Below, one piece after another: positions 3,284 through 59,813 of a stretch of DNA of 64,000 bases. The position numbers were made by a program, and so were the translations under genes. This DNA comes from Amoebidium appalachense. Taxonomy: Eukaryota; Protista; Ichthyosporea. Every line of letters starts with the position of its first letter. Within the stretch, counting starts at the first letter, position 1. A model generated the notes under the pieces. That model made no database searches and had not been told where the DNA came from. It was given only the letters and a program-made list of their open reading frames with translations. The stretch spans positions 1,671,449-1,735,448 of the forward strand of contig CAVNZM010000004.1 of assembly GCA_963693365.1 (NCBI GenBank), read 5' to 3'.

Positions 3284-3326
<43 letters not shown>

Positions 3327-3358
3327 GGGCTCCCCTCGGGACACTCGGTATCAGCTGG

Positions 3359-3409
<51 letters not shown>

Positions 3410-3429
3410 TGTGTGTGTGTGCGCGTGCG

Positions 3430-6400
3430 CTATAATTTTGTAGTGATGTGTTTCTCAAGCCAATCAATACATCTAATAAACAGGTCGTAGTTACGCGTGT
3501 TTAGTATAAAATCAAGGATGTTGTAATTTACAGGTAGGCTATCTTTCTGGGTGTCTGTTGTGAATGTGACGTGTGTGTGTTGCGGTATTATGTGGTCTAT
3601 CAAACTACATTTGGCGATACATGACCGGTTAAACTGGTGTGTGTGTGTGTTGTTTGGGCATGCAAATGATGCCACCTTATACTTATTAGATCTCCACTGT
3701 ATAGCACGTGTACAGTAAAAGCGTGGTAATTGATCAATAATACCATCAGCTAGAGAAAGACCAGTTCTACAGGAAGGTAATATGTATTTAGGTGTTATAC
3801 ACTTGCGAGTGCCATATTTGGCAATATGGTTGAGGCGGTCAGTATATATAAAACGAGACATAAGGCTTAGTTTTTCAAGGTGTATGCTTTCATCGGGTCT
3901 AGTGTCGTGTGGTATCTTTTTCCATTTGTTATATTGCGTGATTATCTTGTGATTGTGTACATGTTTAATAAGTAAGTGGCAGTCCAAAGTCACACACACA
4001 CTATTGCGGGGTTTATTTGTATTTGTGCCCAGGGGAGAAGGGGAGAGAGAGGGGAGGAAAGAGGGGAGAGGTGAGGAGGGGACAGGTCGGATAGAGAAGA
4101 GAGGGTGGGAGGGCAAATACTTCTTTAAGCGGCTTATGTGCTTATTGAATTTCAGCGCGAGATAGGATACTCTAGCAGCTATTGGGACCAGACCATATAT
4201 CGAGAGCGTTACAGGCCCAGGTTTACAACAGTTGTTAGATAGAAAGGAGGCAACTTCTGCTTCAAGGAAATTTGCCAAGGGTTTAAGCGCTCTAGTTCTC
4301 TCTTTCTTGATCCAAGCGGCGAGAAGGGGTAAACCATATTCACATGCCGGGAAGACAAAAGTGCGAATAAATGTAAGTCTAATAGAAGGATGGAGGGGTG
4401 TGTCTTTAAAAATATTAGCCGAGAAGAAAGCTAACCGCTTACGAGCCAACTCTACCCTCTTTTCGACCATATGGGGAAACATAACACCAACAGAATCAAC
4501 CGGAACACCAAGATATTTGTATTCTGGAACTATAGGTACAGGTTTAGATGATAATGTAAATGTGTGTAAATTGTTAGCTATATCAGGTACAAGAACACCA
4601 CATTTGTCTATGTTAAGGATCATAAGGTTTGCCTTGCACCACTCTGACACTACATCGAACAATCTTTGCAGGCGTCTAGGGGTACGGGCAAGGAGGGACA
4701 GATCATCAGCATAGAGAAGTGCAGGCGGAAAGTTATTAATAGGGTCATCGTTTTCGGCGTAAATCTTGACAGCCAAATCATCTATAAATAGGTTAAACAA
4801 AAAGGGGCTAAGCAATGAACCCTGCAAGAGACCTCTAGTACGAGCAAAACCATATGAAAGATGCCCATTAACCACAGCTCTACCATAGGTTTGAGACAAG
4901 AGTGCTTCTAACAGAACACCAATGCAGTGTGGTACACCCCGTGCAGCAAGCTTTTCCCATAGGAGACCAGGGGAGACAGAATCGTAAGCAGTTTTCCAAT
5001 CAATAAAGCCAACATATTGTGCACCAACTTGCATAGAATCGTGCAGTGCCATTATTTGAACATAACATGAATTGTTTTTACGAAAAGCGGATTGGCATGG
5101 GTGTATGTGAAGAATAGATTGAAACCTAGGGTGATGTGCAAATAACCTAAGTAAGCAAGCTTCAAAGAATCTACGAACAACCTGGGTTAGTGTAATGGGG
5201 CGAAATGATGATATGGGGCCCTCAGAGTCCTTCTTAACTATGGGGATCACTAAGGTATCTAACCAAGATGACGGGACATGTCCACATTTAACACACCAAG
5301 AAAAGAGAGAGCTTAACATGATAGTAAGATCAGGTTTAATAGCACGATCACTTTCCTTTTGTGGGTAGGAGGGAACAAGGATTTTAAGATACCCAGCAGG
5401 GAGTCCATCAGGTCCACAAGACTTACTAGAGCTATAACTAGATATCACAGACCATATGGCATCGGGACTGAAAAAGGGGAGGATCGATTCTATGGGGATA
5501 GATGGGTCTACAGGCCACACAATAGGTTTCTGAGCGGGGGTCCTATCTTTAAACAGTTCCGAGAAATACTTATCAGAGTCTATGAGGGGGTCTCCAGTGG
5601 TATCACCAATAATACGAGCAGGGGGTCCAAATCGATTCATACTAGCAAGCCGGCGCAAGCTTTCCTTTTGAGACAGGGGTTCACCTACTCTAGCGGGAGT
5701 GGTGTTTGGTAACAAGAGAGCATCGGGATATTCCTTCCTACCACCGCCAGCATAATCACCGAGATCTATCAAATCATCAACAATAAAGTTAGTGCATGTA
5801 TCTAGTACGAGATGTGAATCTGGCCTGGCTTGTGCAGATTCTAATAGGCGCATATATATAGGGTGTTTCGTAGCATAGCATACACATACATCAACTCTAC
5901 CCCACTGTGACTTAAGCTGGGATAGACGGAGGCGAAAGGTGGGAGGGGGAGGGGGGAGCAGATCAAGGGAGATCTTAGGTAGGAAAAGGATAGGAGAGTG
6001 GTCAGATGACCTAGAGAGGTTAGGAGGGAGAGAGAGTTTTGACATGGTTGATGGCCAAAAGGCCACTCCCCAGTCGGTGTTGTGGGCATGGGATATTTGA
6101 GGGAACCGCAAAGTGTGACTTTGGACATACCTTGCTAAAGGGATAGCACGCTCCGGGGGCTTAGATGGGTACCCGACACTCACTTGCAGTGTGTCTGTGT
6201 GGTGGAGTCGCGTGTTAAAATCACCTAAAATAACAGTGGACATTGGTAACTGTGACAACTCGTGAGTCAATTCGACAACCGACATAGATGGTGGGTAATA
6301 TACAAAAGTAAAAACATTAGAAAGAAACTCTATAGAAACCGAGAATTCCGTTTTTGCTACCGGTTTGCACTTCACTCTCACGTGTGGTGCGGCAAGTACA

Positions 6401-6624
6401 ATAATGCCTCGGTTTTTCGCGTAACCGGGGTGTGTGGATGTGTCGACCAATGTAGAGTTGAATTTGTGGTGGTTTTTAAACTGTGTTTCGCAAATCACTG
6501 TAAACGTGTGGTTGTTTGTCTGTTGTTGTATGTAGCTGATTTTATCGTCGAGTGTCCCGGGGGGGAGGCCCTTTTGGGGGCCCAGTGTCCGAGCATTCCA
6601 GAAGAAGAAGGATAAATTAGGCAT
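3430..6624 (-). CDS. LINE ORF2: AP endonuclease + reverse transcriptase (1064 aa)
   Basis: APE motifs FWNART, ICET, YYPP, ILGDFN, SDH. RT motifs KSCGPDG, FRPITL, QSAFR, IDWKTAYDSV, GLLQGSLLSPFLFNLFIDD, YADD, YKYLG. Degenerate C-terminal Cys motif (CPNN..FNRSCIAKC). Confidence 0.97.
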   Translation of the reverse strand: MPNLSFFFWNARTLGPQKGLPPGTLDDKISYIQQQTNNHTFTVICETQFKNHHKFNSTLVDTSTHPGYAKNRGIIVLAAPHVRVKCKPVAKTEFSVSIEFLSNVFTFVYYPPSMSVVELTHELSQLPMSTVILGDFNTRLHHTDTLQVSVGYPSKPPERAIPLARYVQSHTLRFPQISHAHNTDWGVAFWPSTMSKLSLPPNLSRSSDHSPILFLPKISLDLLPPPPPTFRLRLSQLKSQWGRVDVCVCYATKHPIYMRLLESAQARPDSHLVLDTCTNFIVDDLIDLGDYAGGGRKEYPDALLLPNTTPARVGEPLSQKESLRRLASMNRFGPPARIIGDTTGDPLIDSDKYFSELFKDRTPAQKPIVWPVDPSIPIESILPFFSPDAIWSVISSYSSSKSCGPDGLPAGYLKILVPSYPQKESDRAIKPDLTIMLSSLFSWCVKCGHVPSSWLDTLVIPIVKKDSEGPISSFRPITLTQVVRRFFEACLLRLFAHHPRFQSILHIHPCQSAFRKNNSCYVQIMALHDSMQVGAQYVGFIDWKTAYDSVSPGLLWEKLAARGVPHCIGVLLEALLSQTYGRAVVNGHLSYGFARTRGLLQGSLLSPFLFNLFIDDLAVKIYAENDDPINNFPPALLYADDLSLLARTPRRLQRLFDVVSEWCKANLMILNIDKCGVLVPDIANNLHTFTLSSKPVPIVPEYKYLGVPVDSVGVMFPHMVEKRVELARKRLAFFSANIFKDTPLHPSIRLTFIRTFVFPACEYGLPLLAAWIKKERTRALKPLANFLEAEVASFLSNNCCKPGPVTLSIYGLVPIAARVSYLALKFNKHISRLKKYLPSHPLFSIRPVPSSPLPSFLPSLSPSPLGTNTNKPRNSVCVTLDCHLLIKHVHNHKIITQYNKWKKIPHDTRPDESIHLEKLSLMSRFIYTDRLNHIAKYGTRKCITPKYILPSCRTGLSLADGIIDQLPRFYCTRAIQWRSNKYKVASFACPNNTHTHQFNRSCIAKCSLIDHIIPQHTHVTFTTDTQKDSLPVNYNILDFILNTRNYDLFIRCIDWLEKHITTKL

Positions 6625-7801
6625 CGGTTTGGTCCGACACCTGTGGGGTTGGTTCCCACTTGTCGCTTACGGGGTCGTATGCACGACCTTCCGCCAGCGC
6701 GAACAGTTCGCAGAAGAGCTCGATTTCCATCTCGCATCGGCGTTTGCGCTCGAGCAGTTTCTCACCAGAAAACATTGGTTCCTTCGTGTCCGTGTCTATC
6801 ACGCTCGTAGCATCGTTTTCCAACTTTGCGAGGAACTCTTTTGCCTTGCTGATGCGTACACGACAACGTGTGGCGCACGCATTCTTAGCAGACACTTTAC
6901 GTTCTTTGTCTGCTTTCTGAATGTTTTCCGGCGCGCATGGGTCGTAGCTTGGGAGGTGGGTGAAGAAGCTTCCACACCCCTTTGTCGCGTCACGGATGAA
7001 CGCACGGTTATAGTCGCCCCGTACTGCTACTTCCAGCACATCGTATCCAATGAAGGACAGACAAAGGATGCGAGAGCACCGGAAGCCGAGAGCCTTGAAG
7101 ATGGACCACATGGCCCTGTGTGGGCGTCTGCCGTGCTTGACTTTGAAATACACCCTCTCGTATTTGGGTGGGATGTTGATGTTACCGTTTGCTTGGGTGT
7201 TCCCCTTAGCCGGCGGTTTGGGAGGGGAGTTGCGGCGGTACTCGTTGCCTGCAAGAATGCTGGCATATGTTTCCTTGGCAATTTGGCGGAGCTCGGGTGT
7301 TTTACGAGAGTTCGCATATTCTAGGAACTCTGCCGGGAGCTGTGCTTCCGGTCCTGTGTTGTTTTGTGTTGGGGTGGAAATGTCTCCGTCGCGAGATGTT
7401 TGCTCATGAGTTTTGGGGTTTTGCGATCCACTAATGTTTAGCTGGGCTGTGAGTGAATCAATGGTGAGCTTGAGTTGGGTATTTTCTGTTTGGAGTTTTT
7501 CTATCATGTTCTTGAGTGGTAACAGCTCATTTAGCTGTTTCTTAACGAGGGCAAGTTCTGCCAGTACTGTATCAACCGAAAGTTTCGGCATGGTTGTTAT
7601 TGTGTTTCTACGGAGTGGTGTGGTGTTATTCTGAATGGGTAGTGTATTGTAAATAGGTGTTGCGCTTAGTCTAAGGCGATGTTTTTCTGGTTGTGCATCT
7701 GTGGTAGGTGTATCTGCTGGACGTTTTAATGGTCGCACATGTGTGATGGGTGTAGATGGAACTTTGAAAGAGGTTCTGAAACGATTATAGGCATGTGCCA
7801 T
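6617..7801 (-). CDS. LINE ORF1 protein (394 aa; coiled coil, basic RNA-binding-like C-terminal half)
   Basis: Lies directly upstream of ORF2 with an 8-nt overlap (ATGCCTAA). Heptad segment LAELALVKKQLNELLPLKNMIEKLQTENTQLK and a TYASIL motif typical of ORF1 proteins. Confidence 0.88.
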   Translation of the reverse strand: MAHAYNRFRTSFKVPSTPITHVRPLKRPADTPTTDAQPEKHRLRLSATPIYNTLPIQNNTTPLRRNTITTMPKLSVDTVLAELALVKKQLNELLPLKNMIEKLQTENTQLKLTIDSLTAQLNISGSQNPKTHEQTSRDGDISTPTQNNTGPEAQLPAEFLEYANSRKTPELRQIAKETYASILAGNEYRRNSPPKPPAKGNTQANGNINIPPKYERVYFKVKHGRRPHRAMWSIFKALGFRCSRILCLSFIGYDVLEVAVRGDYNRAFIRDATKGCGSFFTHLPSYDPCAPENIQKADKERKVSAKNACATRCRVRISKAKEFLAKLENDATSVIDTDTKEPMFSGEKLLERKRRCEMEIELFCELFALAEGRAYDPVSDKWEPTPQVSDQTDA

Positions 7802-8390
7802 GACATGGATGGGGGTGTTCCCCGGCCCTTAGGGCCACGGATGGCCTGGTTTAGGGGTGGATGCGCGAAGGATACTATTTATTAGCAGATAATAGAAAGC
7901 GACATTTGAATCGATGCGACATTTGAATCGATGTTGATAAGAAAACACGATAATATTTGTAGGCTACCAATAACAGTAGGTCTATAAGCATTTTTGATTA
8001 TATAATGATTTATAGAATACCATACATGGATTTACTTTCCTATATAATCTAAAAAGAATTCTTTATACCGCTCAGGTTAAAATAGATCTGATAGTACCGT
8101 ATTCATACTAATATTTAGTGCACTAAAAGTCTACCACTGAAGGGCTGTGCATGGACCCGGAGTGCTTTTGCCCATTTCATGCTGCTGCTCGCACTGCCAA
8201 TCAGATTTAGTTAACTTAATAATAGTTTAATAACAACTTGCTACTACTACTCTTACTTTTCTTTTTTATAATGACTTTATTGATATGCTCATGAAAGAGA
8301 AGCAAGCCGGAGATATCACAGATATCTCACAGAAGAAAATACAAAAACCCCTACTCACGGATACGGAGGAGATAACGACTCAAATAATCC

Positions 8391-8563
8391 TGGGGACTTC
8401 ACTTTCACTTAGATCTCTTAGCTGTCACGTCAACTTTTTTTCCCGATTCTTCACCATGGCAGGTATTTAAAGGCTCTTTTGGGGACTTCACTTTCACTTC
8501 GATCTCTTAGCTGTCACGTCAACTTTTTTCCCGATTCTTCACCATGGCAGGTATTTAAAGGCT
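8391..8563. repeat. Direct tandem duplication, period ~89 bp
   Basis: TGGGGACTTCACTTTCACTT...CAGGTATTTAAAGGCT occurs at 8391-8474 and 8480-8563, nearly identical. Confidence 0.92.
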
Positions 8564-9369: not shown

Positions 9370-10700
9370 AGAAAAAATTTCTAACGGAAGAATCTGAGAT
9401 AAATAAATACATTTATCTAGATGTTTGCGAGAAAAAGGTTCTGCACAAAAGTGACACAAACATGTATGGAAACTAAGGTTACAACGCCAAAATAAACATT
9501 TCCAAGCAATATCATAGGGGTTAGAATGGCAAAATCGGCAAGTGTGGTAGGTTTGCGAGAGGAAGGATGAATATAAGTAGCTAATTTACATAACGATTGT
9601 AGAGAAAATAGACGAGTCTCTAATATAAATAGAAGCACAGGCTCAAGAGTCCTACCATGATACTCTTTACCACAACGATGAAGCAAAGGATATTGAGTAT
9701 GAAACCAAGTATACTGCTGATAAATAGGGGAAGAGAAAAATAAAGGAGATAGATATTTAAAAGGATATCTCTGAATGGGAGATAGATTGGGTACGGGACA
9801 TTTCGCACGAACATTAGAAATGGGAACAGGGTCTAAAGAAGGAAAGAATTGCAACAAAGGATGATAAGAAGGAAGCCTAACCAAATGAAAACAAAAACGA
9901 GGGCCTAACTCATTCATACGCTGACTCGCCGGAGGGAGACCAAAAACACTCAGCAAATTTGTAGCCGCCAGAGGATGCCTACTCGAGGTTCGAGAGATGA
10001 ACTGGATCAATTCATGCTGAAAGGAATCGAATTCCCGAACCGCCGCACGCTGTTGCCGTGGCCATGGAGGGGCACACAAGAGTAACGGGAGGCCATATTC
10101 GAAACATGGACGAAGAAGAACTTTATAAAGAGTGAGCAGATTAGCAGGATGGACATTAGAAATACTTGCGAAAATGCCTTGATAGATGTGTAAACGACCA
10201 CGCGCACGGGAAATGCGCGAAGTCAAAAAGCGCTCAAAGCAAATACCCTTACAAATGAAAGGAATACCTAAATAGTCATAGGAGGACCTACCACCTACTT
10301 AGGCGGTGTCTCCTTTCTTTTTTTATTTATTTATTTATTTTTTTTGCAAAAAGGGACGCCTCAAGTAGATGTATAACGTCGCACGTGCGCAACACGTCAG
10401 TACGTGTTAGTAGGAGGACACAGCTGGGATAGGTTGATTGTGCAAAGTGTAGTGTGCATGGGGAGAAAAGGTGCCGCATTTATCTTTCCCAATTTTCATG
10501 AAATTTCGGAAACACCAATCATCTACTCGCGAAAGCATGGTAGTCATAATAGAAGGATCATGAATGACTAAAACATTATCATCAGCGAAAAAAAGGCCGG
10601 AAACACAAGAGTCGCCTGCAAGGGGAAATTGTTGAATTTCTACCGCTTAGTCGTCAATAAAGACATCAAAAAGGAGGGGACTCAAAAGTGAGCCCTGTAA
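9370..10700 (-). pseudogene. Decayed LINE ORF2 fragment (RT second half + C-terminal domain), related to the intact LINE
   Basis: LQGSLLSPLLFDVFIDD*, FFADD, DKCG, YDYLGIP, RPCFEYGLPLL and C-terminal CHFCAEPFSRKHLDKC. Contains a stop and a frameshift, and is interrupted by the TIR element at 10288-10410. Confidence 0.9.
10288..10410 (+). mobile_element. Non-autonomous TIR element (MITE), copy 1, with a 9-bp TSD
   Basis: Ends CTACCACCTACT / AGTACGTGTTAG form imperfect TIRs. Flanked by TAGGAGGAC at 10279-10287 and 10411-10419. Removing it restores the LINE RT frame (VSSYDYLG). Confidence 0.88.
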
Positions 10701-10931
10701 TTCGAAACAAGGACGAAGAAAAACTTTATAAAGAGTGAGCAGATTAGGAGGATGGACATTAGAAATACTTGCGAAAATGCCTTGATAGATGTGTAAACAT
10801 TCGAAACATGGACGAAGAAAAACTTTACTAAAGAGTGAGCAGATTAGCAAAATAACTTTCCGGAAGAGCCAAGGCATCCGATCCTTGACTACTACACCGG
10901 TTGGAGTTAAAGTAGCTTAGAGGGCCATTGC

Positions 10932-37539: not shown

Positions 37540-40500
37540 TGTCGAACAGGATAGCCATCCGGTATGCCCTGCGTTAGCGTAGCACTAGTGATCGGGAATA
37601 TTCGAGATATTCGGGATAAACTGGTGGATAGGTTCACGATAGATCAGGATAGATCTAGAGGAGTCTAGAAGATTCTGTTGGAGTGTTCTGATTGGTAGCG
37701 ACTAGATCCATAGCGGCGGGTAGACCAATCGGGAATAGTATGTAACATTCCAGTGAGCCAGACCACAAGTATATAAAGGTCCCGGTGGGCCAGTCAATGT
37801 AAGTCAGCAAATAATAAAGTCTCACAGAGAAACCTCTAAGTTACGGTTACGGACCCAGTACAACGCTACGATCAAGCGACTGTTGAGACAAGATGGGAAG
37901 AGCAAAATGTCCAGTTCCCATGTATGAAGGAGAAGGCAAGGGCAAAATCTCCTACTCAATGTGGGCCATGCGCATGAAGTGCTTCCTCGAGGGCGAGGAA
38001 TTATGGTACACGATTGAAGACGTGGCTCCTGAAGTGATAGGAGAGGACGGCGAACCGGTGGAGCAACCTCCGGTGGAGATCGACCCCTTGGATCAGAAGA
38101 AGGCGACTTCCTACCTGGTGGAGACACTAGGTGATGTACCTGCAAGCCTGTGTCGGCGAGCTATTGCCGTAGGAAATCCCAAGGACATATGGGATACGGT
38201 AGCATCATACGCTGCGCGCAACACAGATGAGCACAAGAGAATGTTGATTCAACAGTTCTGGCGTGCTGATATGATGCCGACGGAAAGCGTGCTGGAGTAT
38301 GCGGCCCGCCTGGAGTGCATTGTGCAGGATCTTCTTCATATCGATCCCAATGGAGTTAGTGAGGACATGGTTGCCGAGAAATTCCTGGACGGTGTAGGCG
38401 CTGACGACCGATTCCGCACCGACGTTAGGACCATTCAAGCTTTACCAGCAGCTGAGAAGACAATGGAAAAGATAATCGCCAAGCTGCGTGGTTTTGAGGA
38501 GAACGAGGCTGCAAGGGAACAGCAGCGGGTGATGATGACCAGCACCCAATGGCGCGGCGGTACGCCACGACAGGACACCGGCAAGCCGCGCGTGACTGAC
38601 ATATCCAAGGTGGAGTGTTACAAATGTCACAAGTTTGGGCACTACAAGTCACAGTGTCCAAAGAAGAAGAAGGGCGGCAATCGCGGCGACAAGGCGAAGC
38701 AGAACGGAGCTTCCAAGGAGATACTCGCCATGGCGGTAAACAGCGGACTCCCTTCTTCAACTGAGTGGTATTGGGACTGCGGCGCAACCTCCCATGTCAC
38801 ATGCCGAAAGGACTGGATGGAAGACTTCCGGTCGATCACACCCAAACCCGTCGCTCTGGGTAACACCCCGGGTGTGATGGCGCTAGGAATAGGCGTCGTA
38901 AGATTAACAAGTGAGTTCCAGGGCAACAGCATGACATTTAGACTGCAGAATGTGCTGTACGTGCCAGCATTTGGAACTAACGTGATGTCGGCTTCAAGCG
39001 CCGGCAAGCACGGGTTAAGAATCATCACCGACGGTCGACAGTGTACGATTGAGAGTGCCACAGATGGCCAAGTTGTGGCCCGTGGGGTAGTGGAGGGAGG
39101 CCTGTATCGTCTCCTAGTGAAACCCGTATGTGAGAGCGTGAACATGGTGACCACTGCAGTCGGCGGCAGTGGGGGTAACACCGTGTGTGAGCCGGTAAAG
39201 GGCAGCGCCAGTTTATGGCACCGGCGGTTTGGTCATGTGGCAATAAACACGCTACAGAAGATGGTTAAAGAAAACATCGTCGAGGGTCTGTGCATCGACT
39301 GCAAAACCCAGGATGACGGTGTGTGCGAGGGATGCGCGAGAGGGAAGCAAGCCCGGCTCTCTTTCAGTAAGCTACCCCGCAAGACAGCGCCAGCGAAGCT
39401 CGACAGAGTTCATTCTGATGTGGCAGGACCGTTCAACAAGGAGTCGCTGCAAGGTTCCAAGTATTATGTCACCTTCATCGACGACAAGACAAGGTTCACT
39501 ACGGTGTACTTCATGAAACATAAATCCCAAGTGCATACTTACTTCAAGAAGTACAAGGCACACGTAGAGAAGCAACACGGTGCCAGCATCAAGATTCTGC
39601 GTTCCGACAACGGGGGTGAGTACACCTCCACTGAGTTCAAGTCGTTCCTGGAAGCGTGCGGCATTGAACATGAGGCGACAGTCCCACACACCAGAGCAGA
39701 ATGGTGTAGCAGAGAGGGCTAACAGGACCATTGTCGAGACGGCGCGCTGCATGCTGCAGTCAGCAGGCATGAGTATGGGGTTCTGGCAGCTAGCAGTACA
39801 GGCAGCTGTGTACATCAAGAACCTGACGCCAACCACAGTACTGGGTGGCATGACACCTTGGGAGGCATGGTATGGAGAGAAGCCCGATGTTAGCCATCTA
39901 CGTGTATTTGGTAGCAAGGCATTTGTCCATGTGCCGAAGGACGAGCGCAGGAAGCTAGACGCCAAGAGTCGGGAGTGTAAATTCGTCGGCTACACAGGTG
40001 ACAGCAAGACGTACTTGTTGTGGGACACCGAGGCGCGCAAGACTATCGTCGGGCGAGATGTGGTGATCGATGAATCATGCACCCCAAAGGCCGGTATTCC
40101 GGTGGTGCAAGATGAGCCAATGGAATTGCTGATGCATAAGCCAATCGGAAATCAGCAGAGCATGGAATCGAGGAATCCAATCAGCGTCAAGAAGCAACAT
40201 TCCTTTCGGAAGCCTGCAATCGGCACTGACAGTGGATATGATTCAGATGCTATCGGCGACGGCGCGGGCGAGGACAGCGGCGATTCGGACGCGGCAGGGT
40301 CAGGAGACGAGGAAGATAGTGCAGAGTTGCAGGTTGCAACCAGAAGTGCCTATCCGTCTATGACTACAAGGCGCGGTGGGACCTACGGCATCAACGCAGG
40401 TGTAGTAGAGTACCGCGACAGTATCAGCATGGCAATTGAGAGTGCTGATAGCAATGAGGATGACCCTGTGACACTGGAAGAAGCAATCTCCAGGCCAGCA

Positions 40501-41106
40501 TCAAACACATCGACGTTCAGTACCACTACACCCGTGAGTGTGTGGAGAATGGGGATGTAGAACTTGTGTATTGCAGCACGAACAGTAACGTGGCCGACAT
40601 GTGCACCAAAGCTTTAGGGAGACTTAAGTTAGTGCAGCATCGGCAGGCCATCGGCATGGCTGAGTAAGAACTACAATTAGTGTAGTGTTAATGTTCGTGT
40701 AGTAGGTGTTATATGTGTTAGTATAGTAGCATAGTTTTAGAGTTGCATCTTAGGTTTAGGTTGCATGCGGTAGATAGATAGAACACAGTGCAAGTGGGGG
40801 TGTCGAACAGGATAGCCATCCGGTATGCCCTGCGATAGCGTAGCACTAGTGATCGGGAATATTCGAGATATTCGGGATAAACTGGTGGATAGGTTCACGA
40901 TAGATCAGGATAGATCTAGAGGAGTCTAGAAGATTCTGTTGGAGTGTTCTGATTGGTAGCGACTAGATCCATAGCGGCGGGTAGACCAATCGGGAATAGT
41001 ATGTAACATTCCAGTGAGCCAGACCACAAGTATATAAAGGTCCCGGTGGGCCAGTCAATGTAAGTCAGCAAATAATAAAGTCTCACAGAGAAACCTCTAA
41101 GTTACA
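37540..41106 (+). mobile_element. Ty1/copia LTR retrotransposon, young, with an internal deletion of RT
   Basis: LTRs 37540-37844 and 40801-41106 differ at one visible substitution (37574 T / 40835 A) plus the terminal base. 5-bp TSD GGGGA. PBS GGTTACGGACCCAG at 37845-37858. PPT AAGTGGGGG before the 3' LTR. Confidence 0.97.
37893..40667 (+). pseudogene. Copia gag-protease-integrase with a frameshift, fused out of frame to the RNase H C-terminus
   Basis: Gag YSMWAMRM, knuckle CYKCHKFGHYKSQC, protease WDCGATSH, integrase LWHRRFGH/CEGC/HSDVAGP/RSDNGGEY. Frameshift at ~39690 (VPHT/PEQNG). After DPVTLEEAISRP the sequence jumps to KHIDVQYHYTRE..NVADMCTKAL..*. Confidence 0.93.
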
Positions 41107-43457: not shown

Positions 43458-43673
43458 ATGGTGAGTTCTTGGTGTGGTCTAGCACCTCAAATTTTCCGTT
43501 GAGGTTTCTGTGGCACAGAAAATAGCTTCTTGATGACCAGGAACTGAGTTGGTGGGTGAGAAACGGTGTAGGCAGATGGGTGCTGGAGCAGTGGCGGGGG
43601 AGGAAAGTGTGTGGCTGTGTTTTGAGGAGGGAAACGTTATTTCGAGTGAATAGAAGCGTGTGGTGTGTGTGCG

Positions 43674-43745
<72 letters not shown>

Positions 43746-44044
43746 GTGGGTGTGGGTGTGGGTGTGGGTGTGGGTGTGGGTGTGGTTGTGGTTGCACATA
43801 GGCTTGTGTGCTGCTCCTGATTTGTTTTGCATGCTTTTGCATGGCAGGTTGCCATACGGGCTAGGATGAGTTTTTTGCGTGCGATCATGTGTGTTGTGTG
43901 TGCGTGTATGTGCGTGTGTGCGTGTGCGTGGGCAGGTGCTGGAGTTGTAGTTGCACTTGCTGAGTTTTTTCCATTGAGAACCCACCTGGGTCAAACTTGG
44001 CTGCCTAGAGTGATGGATATGTGCTTTTTTTTTGGGTGGGGGGT

Positions 44045-44080
<36 letters not shown>

Positions 44081-44645
44081 GCGGGGGGGGGGGGGGGGGG
44101 GGGGGAAGGGGCAGAGAGGTCGAAAACTGATATATCTTGAAGGAGGGCTGGCAACGACAAGGAAAATATGTATTATGGTCAATAGCTTTTTGGAAGTGGT
44201 GCTCTTGCTTGTGCGCACAACTGTGGGTGCTTCACCATGGGTGAGCCGTTTGGTCGAAAATTTCTGTAAGCGTTAACTTTGATATACTGTGAACACTGGT
44301 TTGGATATACCACAAGATTTTGACTCTTTATTTCTTGCAGGTGTCCACCGAGCAGACTATCAACACCCAGCACGATGATATGATCGTAAGTGTGCTTGTT
44401 GAATATCACATGTTTCTTCTGTGAGAGTTTGTGTGACTTAACACGTGGGTGCTTAACAAGAGCAAGCCCGTGTAAGGCGTTTGTAGGAAGGCATTCGGGT
44501 GGAGTTTTTCTGTGTCTGTATATGTAGACCCCCCCCCCCCCCCCCCTTCTTTCAATCTATTTTTCTTTTTGTTTTTTCCCTTGTTTTTTTTTTTTGTGTG
44601 TGTGTGGGGAGGGAGGGGAGGGGAGGGGGGGGGAATGGGCAATAT

Positions 44646-44676
<31 letters not shown>

Positions 44677-44871
44677 AGTGAAAGTGATATGGGATTAAGC
44701 AGTCACATCCATCGCCCATTTGCTGATGTCTTCGGCCCCTCCCCCCCCCCCCCCCCCCCTTCCCCCAAAAACACACATACACACATACACCCTGCCCTTC
44801 CGGGGGCCAATCCATCTTGGCTGCCGAAGCTCACAAGTAGAATGTCTACCTTTTGACATATTTACATTCGT

Positions 44872-44902
<31 letters not shown>

Positions 44903-45152
44903 CCCCCCGTGTTTTCACACCGGTACCCCCCCTTTTTTTGGGGGGGGGGGGGGGGGAGGAAGGGGGCGGGGAGGGGGTGGTGGTGGTGGGGGGGGGGGGG
45001 GGGGGGGGGGGGGGGTGTCACATGCTATGTACCGCTCCCCCTGCCTTTCTACGGCTCTCCGCCCGGCGCGCAGGGACCTCGCACATCTCTCTGGGTCTTT
45101 TTTTTTTTTTTTTTAACCCGTTCACTTGCTTTTTAGCTTGCTTCCCCCCCCC

Positions 45153-45185
<33 letters not shown>

Positions 45186-45619
45186 CCCTCCCCACTCCCT
45201 TCCCCCCCACTCCCTCCCTCCCGCCTTCCCTCCCTCTCAGTGTCTCCCTCTCTCTCTCTCCCCCATCGAATCTCCCATTGGGAGGGGGGGGGGGGGGGAG
45301 ACGGGACTTAATGGGTGGGTGTTCATTTTGCATTACACTTTCTGCTCTGCAACCTTTTTTCGTTTGTTTATCTTCCTTTTGGTGCCATGAACTTTGTCTG
45401 AATTCCATATCCCCCCCCCCCCCCCCCCCCCCCCTCCTCCCATTAGCACGATGCCCAGTTGGACTATTATGGCAAGCGACTGGCCACGGCATCATCCGAC
45501 CGCACAGTGAAGGTGTTTGATGTGGGTGCGGACGGCCAATACACACGCATAGCCGACCTAAGGGGGTAGGTCATGTGTGTGGGTGTGTGTGTGTGTGTGT
45601 GTGTGTGTGTCTGCATTCG

Positions 45620-45651
<32 letters not shown>

Positions 45652-45659
45652 TGTGCGCA

Positions 45660-45696
<37 letters not shown>

Positions 45697-46153
45697 AAGC
45701 GCGCGCGCGTGTGTGTGTATGTGCGTGTGTGTGTGCACGGGCGTGTGGGTAAATCATGCTGTGAAAAAAGAAGTTGTGGGGTACGTGATGGGTTTGAAGG
45801 GGGGGGGGTGGCAGGGGGGAGATGGCTCTGCCATAAGCTCACGAAGGTACAGAAAACTCCCACCGGAAATTAGTGCCGGCAGAAGAATGGGGAAGTGTAT
45901 GTGTGTGTGTTTGTGTTGAGTGGTGGTGGTAGCTGGCTGGCTGGTAGGGGGAGAGATCGCTGTTGCTAGTTCAGACGGCAGCCTGGTTGGTCCGAAGGTT
46001 CAGTTTCGGAGTAGGAGAATTCGATTTTTGATTGAAAAATGTTGCTTTGTCTTGATAAGGGGATGCGATGTACAGACGTTTAGGTATTTCTGGTTGAACG
46101 TCTTAGAGGGATAGGGGACAGGTTACACACACACACTACGCACACACACACAC

Positions 46154-46206
<53 letters not shown>

Positions 46207-46215
46207 ACACACACT

Positions 46216-46297
<82 letters not shown>

Positions 46298-46736
46298 GTA
46301 GGGCATCAAGAATGTACCCCATGGAAATAGTTTTTGAATCATGGATCTTCACCATTAAGAATTGCCCGAAATAAAACATTAGATGATGGGAGAAACACGG
46401 AAATGTTCCCTGAATCATATTTTTTTGCCATCAGTTATTGCCCAAAAAACGGAAATATTCCTCAAGACCCATATAAATGTTCCTTGAGTAATGAAATTTC
46501 TGCTGTGTGCAGGCATGACGGTGCGGTGTGGCAGGTCAGCTGGGCACACCCCAAGTTCGGCAACATCCTTGCCTCGTGCTCGTACGACAAAAGGGTGATT
46601 ATCTGGAAGGAGACTAACGGCCAGTGGGGCCGCCTGTTTGAGTATGCCCGCCACGAGTCCAGCGGTATGTGTGTGTGTTCTGAATATACATCGGTATGAT
46701 GTTATCCGTGATGACTCCGTACTGCATGCCGTGAAG

Positions 46737-46772
<36 letters not shown>

Positions 46773-46841
46773 CCGCGGGCTCTGGTGCCTCACCACGCTG
46801 CCTATAAGTCATCTTATCGGTCCCCCCCCCCCCCCCCCCCC

Positions 46842-46894
<53 letters not shown>

Positions 46895-47529
46895 AAAAAA
46901 CGAACAAAACAACTCCGCTGGACTCACCGTTTCTGCTTCCCTGGTTGTCACTTAGTTTGCATGTTCCTGCTCTGTGTTTGCCGTTCGTTTGGTCTGCATT
47001 CGTTTGCCATCAACCCCCCATCGCATCCAGCTGTATGCCTGTATGCCTACATGACCGATTTTTATAATCTAATAGAAATAATCCCCGTTTTCACGCTCCT
47101 AACTACCGTGCTTCTTCTTCTTCTTCTTTTTTTTTCACCACAGTGAATGCTGTTGCCTGGGCGCCACATGAGTACGGGCTGGTGCTTGCAGCTGTATCCT
47201 CAGACGGCCGCCTGTCCATCCTGGCCCACATAGGTACGGGGTGCTGTGTGTGCTGTACGCTGACGTGGCCTACCTGCTGGCAGTTTTCGGTTTCACCAGT
47301 GGGGGCGGGAGAGCAGGGAGCGTGGACTCACAGGGCCTGCCTGGGGGGGGGGGGGGGGGGGGGGGGGGGCATTCTTTCTCTTAGGTATCATACATAGGTC
47401 TGTCTGTGCACGTGTGTATGGGCTCATCCCAACGGCACTTGAGCACGTGTGTGCAGCTGCTGGTAATGTGTTGGAATTGAAGTATGTATCATGCGGGTGG
47501 GTGCATGTTTGCTTGTTTGGGGGAACGGG

Positions 47530-47577
<48 letters not shown>

Positions 47578-48002
47578 GGGGGGGGGGGGGGGGGGGGGGG
47601 GGGAAGGGGGGATGTTGACATCTCTCCAGGATAAAAATAATGTTTGCCTCGAAATATTCACTATTCTTCCCCTTTTTTGCCCGTCTTTTTTCTTTAGCGG
47701 ATGACCAGACTGCACCGTTCAAGGAAATGGCGTTTGAGGTGGCACACCCCGATGGCTGCAATGCCGTCAGCTGGGCCCCGGCAATCGAGGAGATGGTACG
47801 TCATGCACGCTATATGCATGGGCTTACGTGCATGGACACACAGACACACACATGCAATGCTTCGGGGTAGTGTGCTCATAGATAAGCCACAATCCAAACA
47901 CGTACAGGTAAAACACACGTGTGCCAGAGACACATGCACACGAGCATGAACGACGACTGTCAATATGAAGATGCAGTCTTCCTGGCGCAGGCCCGGGGGC
48001 TT

Positions 48003-48037
<35 letters not shown>

Positions 48038-48315
48038 TTTTTTTTTTCTTTTTTGTCTTTTGTTGTGTAAGACATGATGTTTGGTGAGTACTGATCCGCT
48101 TGCTGATGTCTGCAGGCAAAAGGAAGGCGGCTGGTTACTGGTGGCTGCGACAACTCAGTCCTCGTGTGGAGGTAGGTGGTCCCATATTTTATCTTGTTAA
48201 AGCCTACACGTGGATGCCGTGTGGGCTCTGTGTGTGTGTGGTGTGTTTGCTTTTTCTTTTTTTTTTTTTTTTTTTCTTTTCTTTTTTTTTTTTGTTGTTG
48301 TTGTGTGTGTGCGTA

Positions 48316-48347
<32 letters not shown>

Positions 48348-48348
48348 C

Positions 48349-48394
<46 letters not shown>

Positions 48395-48610
48395 GGAATA
48401 TGCAGATCTTGAGCAACTCTTGTGGTGGCCTAGTACATGTGGTGGTGACAAGCACTGGGGTTGCAGGATGAAGGATGGGCGACCAGAGCGTGTGTGTGAG
48501 CTGCAGCGACACAATGCACCCCATGCACACGATGACTGGGTCCGGGATGTGGCCTGGGCCCCAAATGTCGGCCTGCCCTCCTCCCTCATTGCCACATGCA
48601 GCCAGGTAAC

Positions 48611-48646
<36 letters not shown>

Positions 48647-48897
48647 CCCTGAGTAGGGTTTCGTTAACGAGGGGAATAGGTCGAAACTCGGGTACTGTGG
48701 ATGACGTGGGCCCCCCCTGAGGATGGGCTCTGCTTATTATGCATACTCTTTATGTATGGCTTGCAATCTGCATCGTGTTATCCGTTTGTTCTTGTGTACT
48801 TCGTACTTTTTGACGCATTCAACCCCCCCCCCCCCCCCCCCCCCCCCACCAAACATCCATTGGTATGTGTGCACTCATATGCATGCCCAGGAATGCG

Positions 48898-48928
<31 letters not shown>

Positions 48929-49245
48929 ATACACACACATCCGCACACAAGTGCGTGCAAGCCTAGGCCCGTGCTTGTGCGGAGTGGGCAGGGCAAGATC
49001 AATGTGGAATGTTGTGGGATTCAGTCAGTTCATTCCGTATGGACCATGCTAGTGCTCCTGGTGCACGGTTGTGGCTTATCGTTTTTGCTGTGGGATGGTG
49101 ATGTGCACACACATTTTTTGCCGGGTTAGACGAGGTGGGCTATTGGTTGGATATGGTAAGGTTTTCGATCACATAGGGGGTGCATTCATCATTCATAGTG
49201 TGGCACAAAGGTGAGGGAGATGAGGGGCTCCGGGGGGAGAGGGGC

Positions 49246-49279
<34 letters not shown>

Positions 49280-49522
49280 GAACGTGAATGATAACGTGTG
49301 TGGGGGCAATGCAGGACATGACGGTGCGAATCTGGAGCCAGCGAGGAGACAGCGAGGAGTGGGACAGTGCACCGGTGGAGCTCAAGTTCAGCGATGTCGT
49401 GTGGAGGGTCTCCTGGTCTATCACCGGTAACATCTTGGCTGTGTCCAGCGGCGACAAGGTGAATGGGTGGCACATGCATGGGCATGCACACACACCCACA
49501 CATGCACATGCACATGCACATG

Positions 49523-49554
<32 letters not shown>

Positions 49555-50310
49555 CACACACACATACAGCACACACGCACTTAGATACAATCTACAGCAC
49601 ACACAGGTACATACATGTGCATGTACACACGATCTCTCCCTCTCTCTTCTCTTTACAGGCTCTCTCTCTTCCGCCCTTTCTGCCTTCCTCTCTTCCCCCC
49701 CCCCCCATGCTGCATACTTGAATGTTTGCCTTTGCATGTGTCCTGCACCATGCTTCTCATCGTGTATGCGTACTTCGTACTGTGTTCCGCATTCAAAACC
49801 CCCCCTGTCTTCTTTCAGAGGTGTCCTTTCAGGACAGACCACTGTGTGGAGACATCTTTACTTCCATGCAACCGGGCATGGTTGCTCTGTGTCGTGCATC
49901 TGTAAGCACATACGCGTTTGTCGCTGCACTGCATTAGTTTGCACATACATCTTCACCGTTTTGCTCACCTTGCTTGCATAAGCAACCCTGCTCGTCTTTG
50001 ATCAAGACGGGTTGACCCACCCAAGTTCAGTTGATGCTGCTGTCTGAGTTGGAGCGTCGTATATACGCGGGCTAAGGGGTCGAAACTCAGACGCAATTGA
50101 TGACTTGGGCCCTCCCTGAGGATGGGCTCTGCTTATGACGCATACTGTGCGCATGGCTGATGCTGCATACTTGAATGTTTGCCTTTGCATGTGTCCTGCA
50201 CCATGCTTCTCATCGTGTATGCGTACTTCGTACTGTGTTCCGCATTCAAACCCCCCCCCCCCCCCCCTACTTTGTACCGTGTTCCGCATTCAAAACCCCC
50301 CCCCCCCCCC

Positions 50311-52488: not shown

Positions 52489-59813
<7,325 letters not shown>

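Follow-up and report, generated by a model that had tools for sequence, protein, structure and literature searches.

Long-range pairing within an RNA is already a known kind of device, and the accounts cited here and below describe several arrangements close to the one reported in this work. Engineered foldback mRNAs (Eberle et al. 2008, PMC2689704) escape nonsense-mediated decay; beside their poly(A) they carry a complement of 20–30 nt, and its target site lies about 42–50 nt after a stop codon distant from the tail. In Ty1, a long terminal repeat (LTR) retrotransposon, a long-range intramolecular pairing, CYC5/CYC3, involves the 3′ end of the RNA (PMC7969010). The non-LTR element SART1 has overlapping stop and start codons of its first and second open reading frames (ORF1 and ORF2), which are coupled, with an RNA structure downstream of the junction (PMC5972666, PMC10275272). 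In the long-distance pairing of plant RNA viruses (PMC8708638) and in flavivirus cyclization (PMC6765113), a sequence close to the 3′ end finds its partner kilobases upstream, near a start site or a site of recoding. In caliciviruses and influenza B virus, the termination upstream ribosomal binding site (TURBS), a purine-UGGGA core with complementary arms, lies upstream of a stop-start in the −5 frame (PMC11921876). Here we describe a stretch of 64,000 nt from the ichthyosporean Amoebidium appalachense, a unicellular relative of animals (GCA_963693365.1, contig CAVNZM010000004.1, positions 1,671,449 to 1,735,448), called the window below. Its minus strand carries an uninterrupted two-ORF APE-reverse transcriptase (RT) non-LTR retrotransposon, or long interspersed nuclear element (LINE), at about 7916–3285, the last 34 nt of which before poly(A) are complementary to the start of its own ORF2.

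This pairing had been proposed by a first-pass annotation of the letters of the window. The two segments were found where it had placed them, and the upstream one, put at about 50–90 nt past the ORF2 AUG, was measured at nt 51–91. The parts involved are the following.

3285..3322, minus strand: poly(A) tail, 38 nt
3323..3356, minus strand: terminal 34 nt, the downstream partner, reaching the last base before poly(A)
3361..3429, minus strand: (CA)n spacer of the 107-nt 3′ untranslated region (UTR), predicted unstructured
6534..6574, minus strand: the upstream partner, ORF2 nt 51–91 counted from the AUG at 6624, residues 17–31, 42 nt after the ORF1 stop

Positions 3356–3323 pair with 6534–6574 in colinear blocks of 7, 11, 6 and 6 bp, as the annotation had described them. 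The 30 pairs are all Watson-Crick, with no G-U, and the partners are 3178 nt apart. The predicted energy of the duplex is −49.8 kcal/mol. A comparison with shuffled controls, suggested in the annotation, was carried out by searching each dinucleotide-shuffled terminus against the whole element, and none of 300 shuffles was as low (mean −32.3, standard deviation 2.4, best −44.9). The terminus was also the best of 381 windows of the element (mean −24.5, standard deviation 4.3); the next two were its own partner, and the best unrelated pair reached −35.6. When ORF2 codons 1–50 were recoded synonymously, 1 sequence in 2000 paired as well as the native one. The net gain of the duplex is −24.8 kcal/mol once local structure has been opened, and the minimum-energy fold of the 4617-nt RNA retains all 30 pairs, long-range fold predictions being weak evidence for what forms in cells. 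A second register, at 6605–6576, is minor (−22.4 kcal/mol). The complementarity is real and strong, and the long-range duplex is, by predicted energies, thermodynamically well supported.

Chance complementarity, or an assembly artefact, would be the simplest explanation. Both segments are G+C-rich and partly self-complementary, with palindromic parts, and the terminus reaches −34.6 against the antisense of its own partner, as such an origin would allow. The shuffles and the rank among windows speak against it, the terminus and the partner region both recur in independent sequencing runs, and a transcript-derived protein (P0001) carries the same partner peptide; this explanation is largely refuted and we consider it highly improbable. 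The terminus was joined to the tail in contigs of 4 of 4 public runs, with no variant at or above 1%. The terminal 34 nt are therefore the real, invariant end of the family and are not peculiar to this copy. The upstream partner showed no difference among the 40 of 66 differences listed for these runs, in which the family is nearly invariant.

The remaining parts of the element are as follows.

3430..6624, minus strand: ORF2, 1064 aa, APE endonuclease and RT, uninterrupted (profile and motif searches)
6617..6624, minus strand: overlap of ORF2 start and ORF1 stop, AUG-NN-UAA (−5 frame), the AUG being within a predicted 9-bp hairpin
6617..7591, minus strand: ORF1, 324 aa, AUG at 7591, frame open from 7828 (ORF list)
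6635..6665, minus strand: TURBS-like motif, with a 5-nt stem arm at 6665–6661, GUGGGA at 6659–6654 and the complementary arm at 6639–6635
7916..7933, minus strand: 5′ end of the element, with a 17-nt tandem duplication in this copy

The 5′ end was placed where the contigs of runs X5, X6, X16 and X17 all cease to match, at 7916. ORF1 matched no Pfam family above cut-off; the clusters resembling it are mostly hypothetical proteins of Mucoromycota (scores 0.92–0.94). Both ORFs have 99–100% identical proteins in a transcriptome (one named Amoebidium parasiticum by a source); the protein P0218 is identical to ORF1, and by its name and that of P0001, the ORF2 counterpart, the two ORFs derive from a single transcript component, as a bicistronic RNA would require. 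The RT of ORF2 was recognised by Pfam (RVT_1, E 6e-28), its best solved relatives being R2 and L1 ORF2p. Its APE endonuclease was undetected by Pfam alone, and a family profile matched L1 endonuclease structures (E 5e-13 to 4e-10), with APE motifs at residues 9, 44, 109, 134 and 207, and YADD at 638. The structure model of ORF2 (pLDDT, the predicted local distance difference test, 86.7) had L1 ORF2p as top fold match. Self-blast found no terminal direct repeats, hence no LTRs, and with an APE at the N-terminus of ORF2, an RT of non-LTR type and a poly(A) tail, the element is an APE-type LINE. A DIRS-type internal complementary region was rejected, as there is no tyrosine recombinase frame and there are no terminal repeats. 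No AATAAA-type signal was found within the last 400 nt, an Rfam scan gave two chance-level matches only and no ribozyme, and no target-site duplication was seen of at least 5 nt at the first flank base or at least 6 nt at offsets 0–5. Such duplications are common in LINEs, not universal. In a quick RT tree, P0002 (46% identical) and P0004 fell beside the element, on a branch (support 98) whose members are relatives without a clade name. A protein filed under Daphnia pulex, P0007, is nearly identical to P0002 and may derive from attached Amoebidium.

The helix lies in the element much as it does in the engineered foldback. U3323, which adjoins poly(A), pairs with 6574, so that poly(A) exits the helix at the end nearest the ORF1 stop, and this stop is 3.3 kb from the tail. 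A complement beside poly(A), placed about 50 nt after a distant stop in the reporters, is found here as 30 bp with a gap of 42 nt. Because of this gap, and of the end at which poly(A) leaves the helix, we favour, tentatively and short of calling it probable, a natural poly(A) foldback that would protect the bicistronic RNA from nonsense-mediated decay and may help ORF2 re-initiation. That the pairing has some function is probable. In such a foldback, the (CA)n spacer would serve as an unstructured tether through which the terminus reaches its partner, and the helix would form in cells. With poly(A)-binding protein then within about 50 nt of the terminating ribosome, termination at ORF1, despite its distance from the tail, would be read as normal. 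Proximity of the tail may favour re-initiation at the overlapping ORF2 AUG. Ribosomes entering ORF2, presumably rarer, would melt the helix, which would re-form behind them. The antisense stretch itself probably arose by copying from ORF2 and would then have been kept.

The first-pass annotation had suggested that the duplex could control ORF2 re-initiation or enforce cis-preference, an interpretation that is supported in part. Direct control of start-codon choice is unlikely: with its start 50 nt past the AUG, the helix leaves that codon uncovered and, by the size of a ribosome footprint, would lie beyond the initiating ribosome. The geometry agrees better with poly(A) being brought next to the ORF1 stop, a reading absent from the annotation, and this could aid re-initiation indirectly; cis-preference belongs to a rival reading taken up below. 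As for decay of such RNAs, reviews report that UPF1 binds L1 ribonucleoprotein particles and that, when UPF1 is depleted, L1 RNA and protein go up and retrotransposition, paradoxically, goes down; in Rous sarcoma virus an element after the first ORF evades decay (PMC4982230, PMC5031192 for both).

Differences from the described systems are nevertheless clear. The engineered foldbacks are artificial human-cell reporters, whereas here the arrangement is natural, the partner is inside a second translated ORF and the effect on decay is a prediction. Ty1 is an LTR element with its 5′ partner near the primer-binding region, whereas the present element is non-LTR and its terminus pairs 1.3 kb inside; with the upstream partner 1342 nt from the 5′ end (7916), the two ends are not joined as they are in Ty1. 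SART1 has a UAAUG overlap, and the available parts of its descriptions place the structure downstream of the junction, with no mention of 3′-end pairing. The plant viruses and flaviviruses differ in that neither a site of readthrough or frameshifting nor a cap-independent enhancer can be recognised in the present element, whose helix is longer and abuts poly(A). Bipartite non-autonomous LINEs have been described without invoking end pairing, in the parts of that account available (PMC5786205), and a further account, likewise in its available parts, offers no detail on LINEs (PMC11244446). Among the literature matches listed, no LINE 3′ end paired to an ORF2 start and no natural LINE foldback was found, in keeping with the annotation, whose author knew of no LINE equivalent; this is weak evidence, most subscription journals, Repbase reports and supplements being outside the scope of the search. 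As far as the literature searched goes, the pairing of a LINE terminus with an ORF2 start thus appears to be a new form.

The partner peptide had been described as an extra loop right after the WN motif. A long loop is indeed there: the WN-to-xxET distance is 35 here, 32 in the sister P0002 and mostly 25–27 in the wider clade, an excess of 3 residues over P0002 and of 8–10 over most of the clade. It is not unique to this element, and the partner does not coincide with it, since residues 17–31 are modelled as the latter half of the loop (11–23) plus the beginning of a helix (24–38).

Relatives in which the pairing could be followed were scarce. No further copy of the element was found in the window; a second LINE at 9417–10721 on the minus strand is a degraded one of another family. 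It resembles the P0004 family, lacks its 3′ end and carries a segment that has been inserted and duplicated. DNA of close relatives was absent from the viral contigs searched and could not be confirmed in genome contigs, and a metagenome scan (21 of 64 parts) gave 80 distant loci only, at most 41% identical. Read depth in X17 showed a gradient towards the 3′ end, suggestive of 5′-truncated copies; it gives no copy number and was not used as evidence. The distant loci were therefore taken as controls. A long RT frame with sequence after the stop was present in 33 of the 80, several of them with ill-defined 3′ ends. Thirty-five further loci (L081–L115), with eukaryotic LINE-type RT matches, came from prokaryote genome bins, where contamination is most likely.

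When the sequence after the stop was searched, unanchored, against the rest of each element, 3 of the 33 beat all 100 shuffles and 6 had p ≤0.03. One of them, L058 (from a family named Heterosigma akashiwo by a source), scored 50 vs 35 for its best shuffle. Its segments L058:574-625 and L058:3386-3441 form 46 pairs (3 G-U) at −66.2 kcal/mol, and 0 of 1000 recodings was as good. The layout is similar to that of our element, with a stop, an A-rich low-complexity spacer, the antisense segment and poly(A). The partner is the stretch between endonuclease motifs I and II, at +25 to +77 relative to the motif I Asn codon, vs +23 to +64 in the element, and the helix is about 170 nt from the AUG. L058 stands in an RT branch distant from the element in the quick tree; it is a single contig, which may not be the consensus of its family. 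Its relatives are many (65–98% identical), which makes it the best family for a covariation test.

Two anchored tests were then considered. Around motif I (150 nt either side, a window fixed after L058 and L017 had been seen), 24 of the 25 loci given were scored, L094 being dropped for lack of the motif and that of L097 being doubtful. Two reached the p floor of 0.001 (L058 and L038) and four were at ≤0.05 (L017 and L062 in addition). The combined p was 0.02, or 0.14 without L058, and among loci fetched afterwards 0 of 7 gave a match. After the ORF1 stop, 17 controls could be scored (23 given, 6 without a candidate ORF1, several candidates being short frames at contig edges), and a match 10–130 nt after the stop was found in two: L017 (gap 19, p 0.008) and L038 (gap 68, p 0.001). 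In L017, the 3′ UTR after an A-rich spacer pairs with endonuclease motif I (L017:112-129 with L017:2880-2896, 16 of 17 bp), 19 nt after the stop of the upstream frame, with p 0.008–0.01 anchored and 0.12 unanchored. In L038, whose ORF1 is of 969 aa, the region around the first AUG of ORF2 (L038:3110-3131), 68 nt past the end of ORF1, has a 21-nt complement further on in the element. Best matches had at first seemed to gather at the start of ORF2 across many controls. This did not hold up: L021 and L046 were not above shuffles, L009 has a direct copy after poly(A), and the fresh set gave 0 of 7. L016 and L019, at the p floor in the unanchored search, were rejected as parallels, their partners being the RT region and an AT-rich edge of the contig. 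Judging from these loci, the match between end and ORF2 start is sporadic across LINEs, with one convincing parallel, L058.

Several observations weigh against the foldback as the explanation. The antisense duplex is equally strong (−55.0 vs −49.8 kcal/mol for the sense one), and there are no G-U pairs either, so that the sense RNA bears no mark of having been the strand under selection. In L058 no long ORF1 ends near the target, the only candidate being an AUG frame of 30 codons that stops 39 nt short of it, and decay evasion at ORF1 consequently does not explain that locus. The ORF1 candidate of L017 has just 29 codons and is at the contig edge; the partner in L038 sits in a further open frame (L038:7214-7576), not in a UTR; and 15 of the 17 controls with an ORF1 candidate show nothing after its stop. 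The L038 frame follows the APE-RT and looks like a zinc knuckle plus a restriction-like endonuclease. Finally, that the gap of 42 nt is exactly the one in an engineered construct is coincidental, the range being a graded one.

Another reading is that the terminus was captured as an inverted copy of the beginning of ORF2, by self-insertion and 3′ read-through or by a template switch, and is now drifting without function, (CA)n being the older tail. We regard such a relic as somewhat unlikely. Pairing that is colinear and Watson-Crick throughout, with an antisense strand that pairs as well, is expected of an inverted copy made at the DNA level (in L058 too, the antisense duplex reaches −70.7 vs −66.2 in sense). 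The family is young and nearly invariant, so that a recent capture is possible, and most control LINEs lack the feature. A possible route is illustrated by L009, which carries, beyond its poly(A), a copy of its endonuclease start that is direct and partly palindromic (L009:4609-4695), showing that such junctions occur; self-insertion, a tandem unit and an assembly join are the candidates for this one. The match nevertheless stops precisely on the base that precedes poly(A), its four blocks persist across two gaps, and the distant L058 has a match at nearly the same position relative to motif I, in a similar layout. Random capture would hardly be expected twice, in so far as two cases can tell.

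The absence of a long ORF1 near the L058 target would also be explained if the helix were a licence for the template, the ORF2 protein recognising it beside poly(A). Only near-full-length RNAs would then be copied, excluding 5′-truncated copies and passengers and reinforcing cis-preference. The terminus folds weakly alone (−8.4 kcal/mol), whereas the tails that many LINE proteins recognise are structured (PMC5786205). Ty1 replication needs 5′–3′ pairing (PMC7969010), and a solved R2 complex holds RNA of the 5′ part of the ORF together with the 3′ UTR (PDB 8ibz). The upstream partner is, however, so far from the 5′ end (1342 nt) that copies without ORF1 would still pass, and reverse transcription would have to displace 30 bp just after the tail. 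Moreover, no amplified bipartite derivative with both partners was seen among 15 of 24 joints listed, from contigs only. We consider this licensing unlikely.

A further possibility is a translation switch, as in flavivirus cyclization, SART1 coupling or the long-distance pairing of plant viruses. Just inside ORF2, the helix would act as a roadblock or as a stimulator, and so determine how much ORF2 is made or free the RNA of ribosomes ahead of reverse transcription, the TURBS-like motif upstream perhaps holding the ribosome for re-initiation. The overlap in the −5 frame is within the range of known re-initiation elements, SART1 requires structure downstream of its stop-start (PMC5972666, PMC10275272) and flavivirus circularization inhibits initiation (PMC6765113). 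For a TURBS, published criteria include an unpaired purine-UGGGA core, a stop-start frame of −8 to +6, C-G as the fourth pair of stem P1, 12–23 nt from P1 to the AUG and 12–24 nt from P1 to the stop (PMC11921876). The motif has the purine-UGGGA core, the −5 frame, a 5-bp stem with C-G as the fourth pair from its base and 15 nt from stem to stop; the linker from stem to AUG is 10 nt, however, and in predicted folds the core is in a 5-bp hairpin. Isoforms with a sequestered core have been described for some viral TURBS (PMC5972666). The pattern arose in 60 of 20000 random ORF1 codon strings, vs 4339 of 20000 recodings with the amino acids fixed, so that the first figure speaks for the motif and the second against it. 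A sister-family ORF1 was sought as a test of the core, and the search returned only the element's own protein. Known TURBS are, besides, from viruses, with a complementary loop in the host 18S RNA, and are inactive unmodified in yeast (PMC11921876). We therefore class the motif as a TURBS-like candidate, partly outside the published criteria, and not as a TURBS. The distance from helix to AUG, 50 nt in this element and about 170 nt in L058, also speaks against a translation switch of this kind, which is quite improbable.

Elsewhere in the window, 8391–8563 holds a tandem duplication of 85 nt, within a repeat of which public runs contain abundant and variable copies. Long frames at 37887–40557 on the plus strand resemble gag and integrase, presumably of a copia-type LTR element. 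Frames at about 43500–49900 recur, near-identical and at a distance of about 9 kb, at 52500–58800, which suggests either a tandem duplication or a duplicate made by the assembly.

Taken at its widest, the comparison raises an idea that we hold as doubtful: LINEs of unrelated clades may repeatedly have evolved a 3′ antisense clamp on the ORF2 start, which in this element would act as a natural foldback, of a type not known so far outside engineered reporters, hiding the ORF1 stop, with a TURBS-like hand-over to the start codon of the RT frame. In bicistronic LINE RNAs, an ORF1 stop kilobases from the tail should invite decay, so that their survival and their production of ORF2 call for an explanation. 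The helix, 30 bp long, compact and open to mutation, shares its geometry with a reporter proven to suppress decay, and this puts the question within direct reach of experiment. If the helix instead licenses full-length templates, cis-preference could be approached in a new way, and so could the designing of RNA templates for retrotransposon-based insertion; if it is a relic, it would still show a route by which the ends of LINEs are remodelled.

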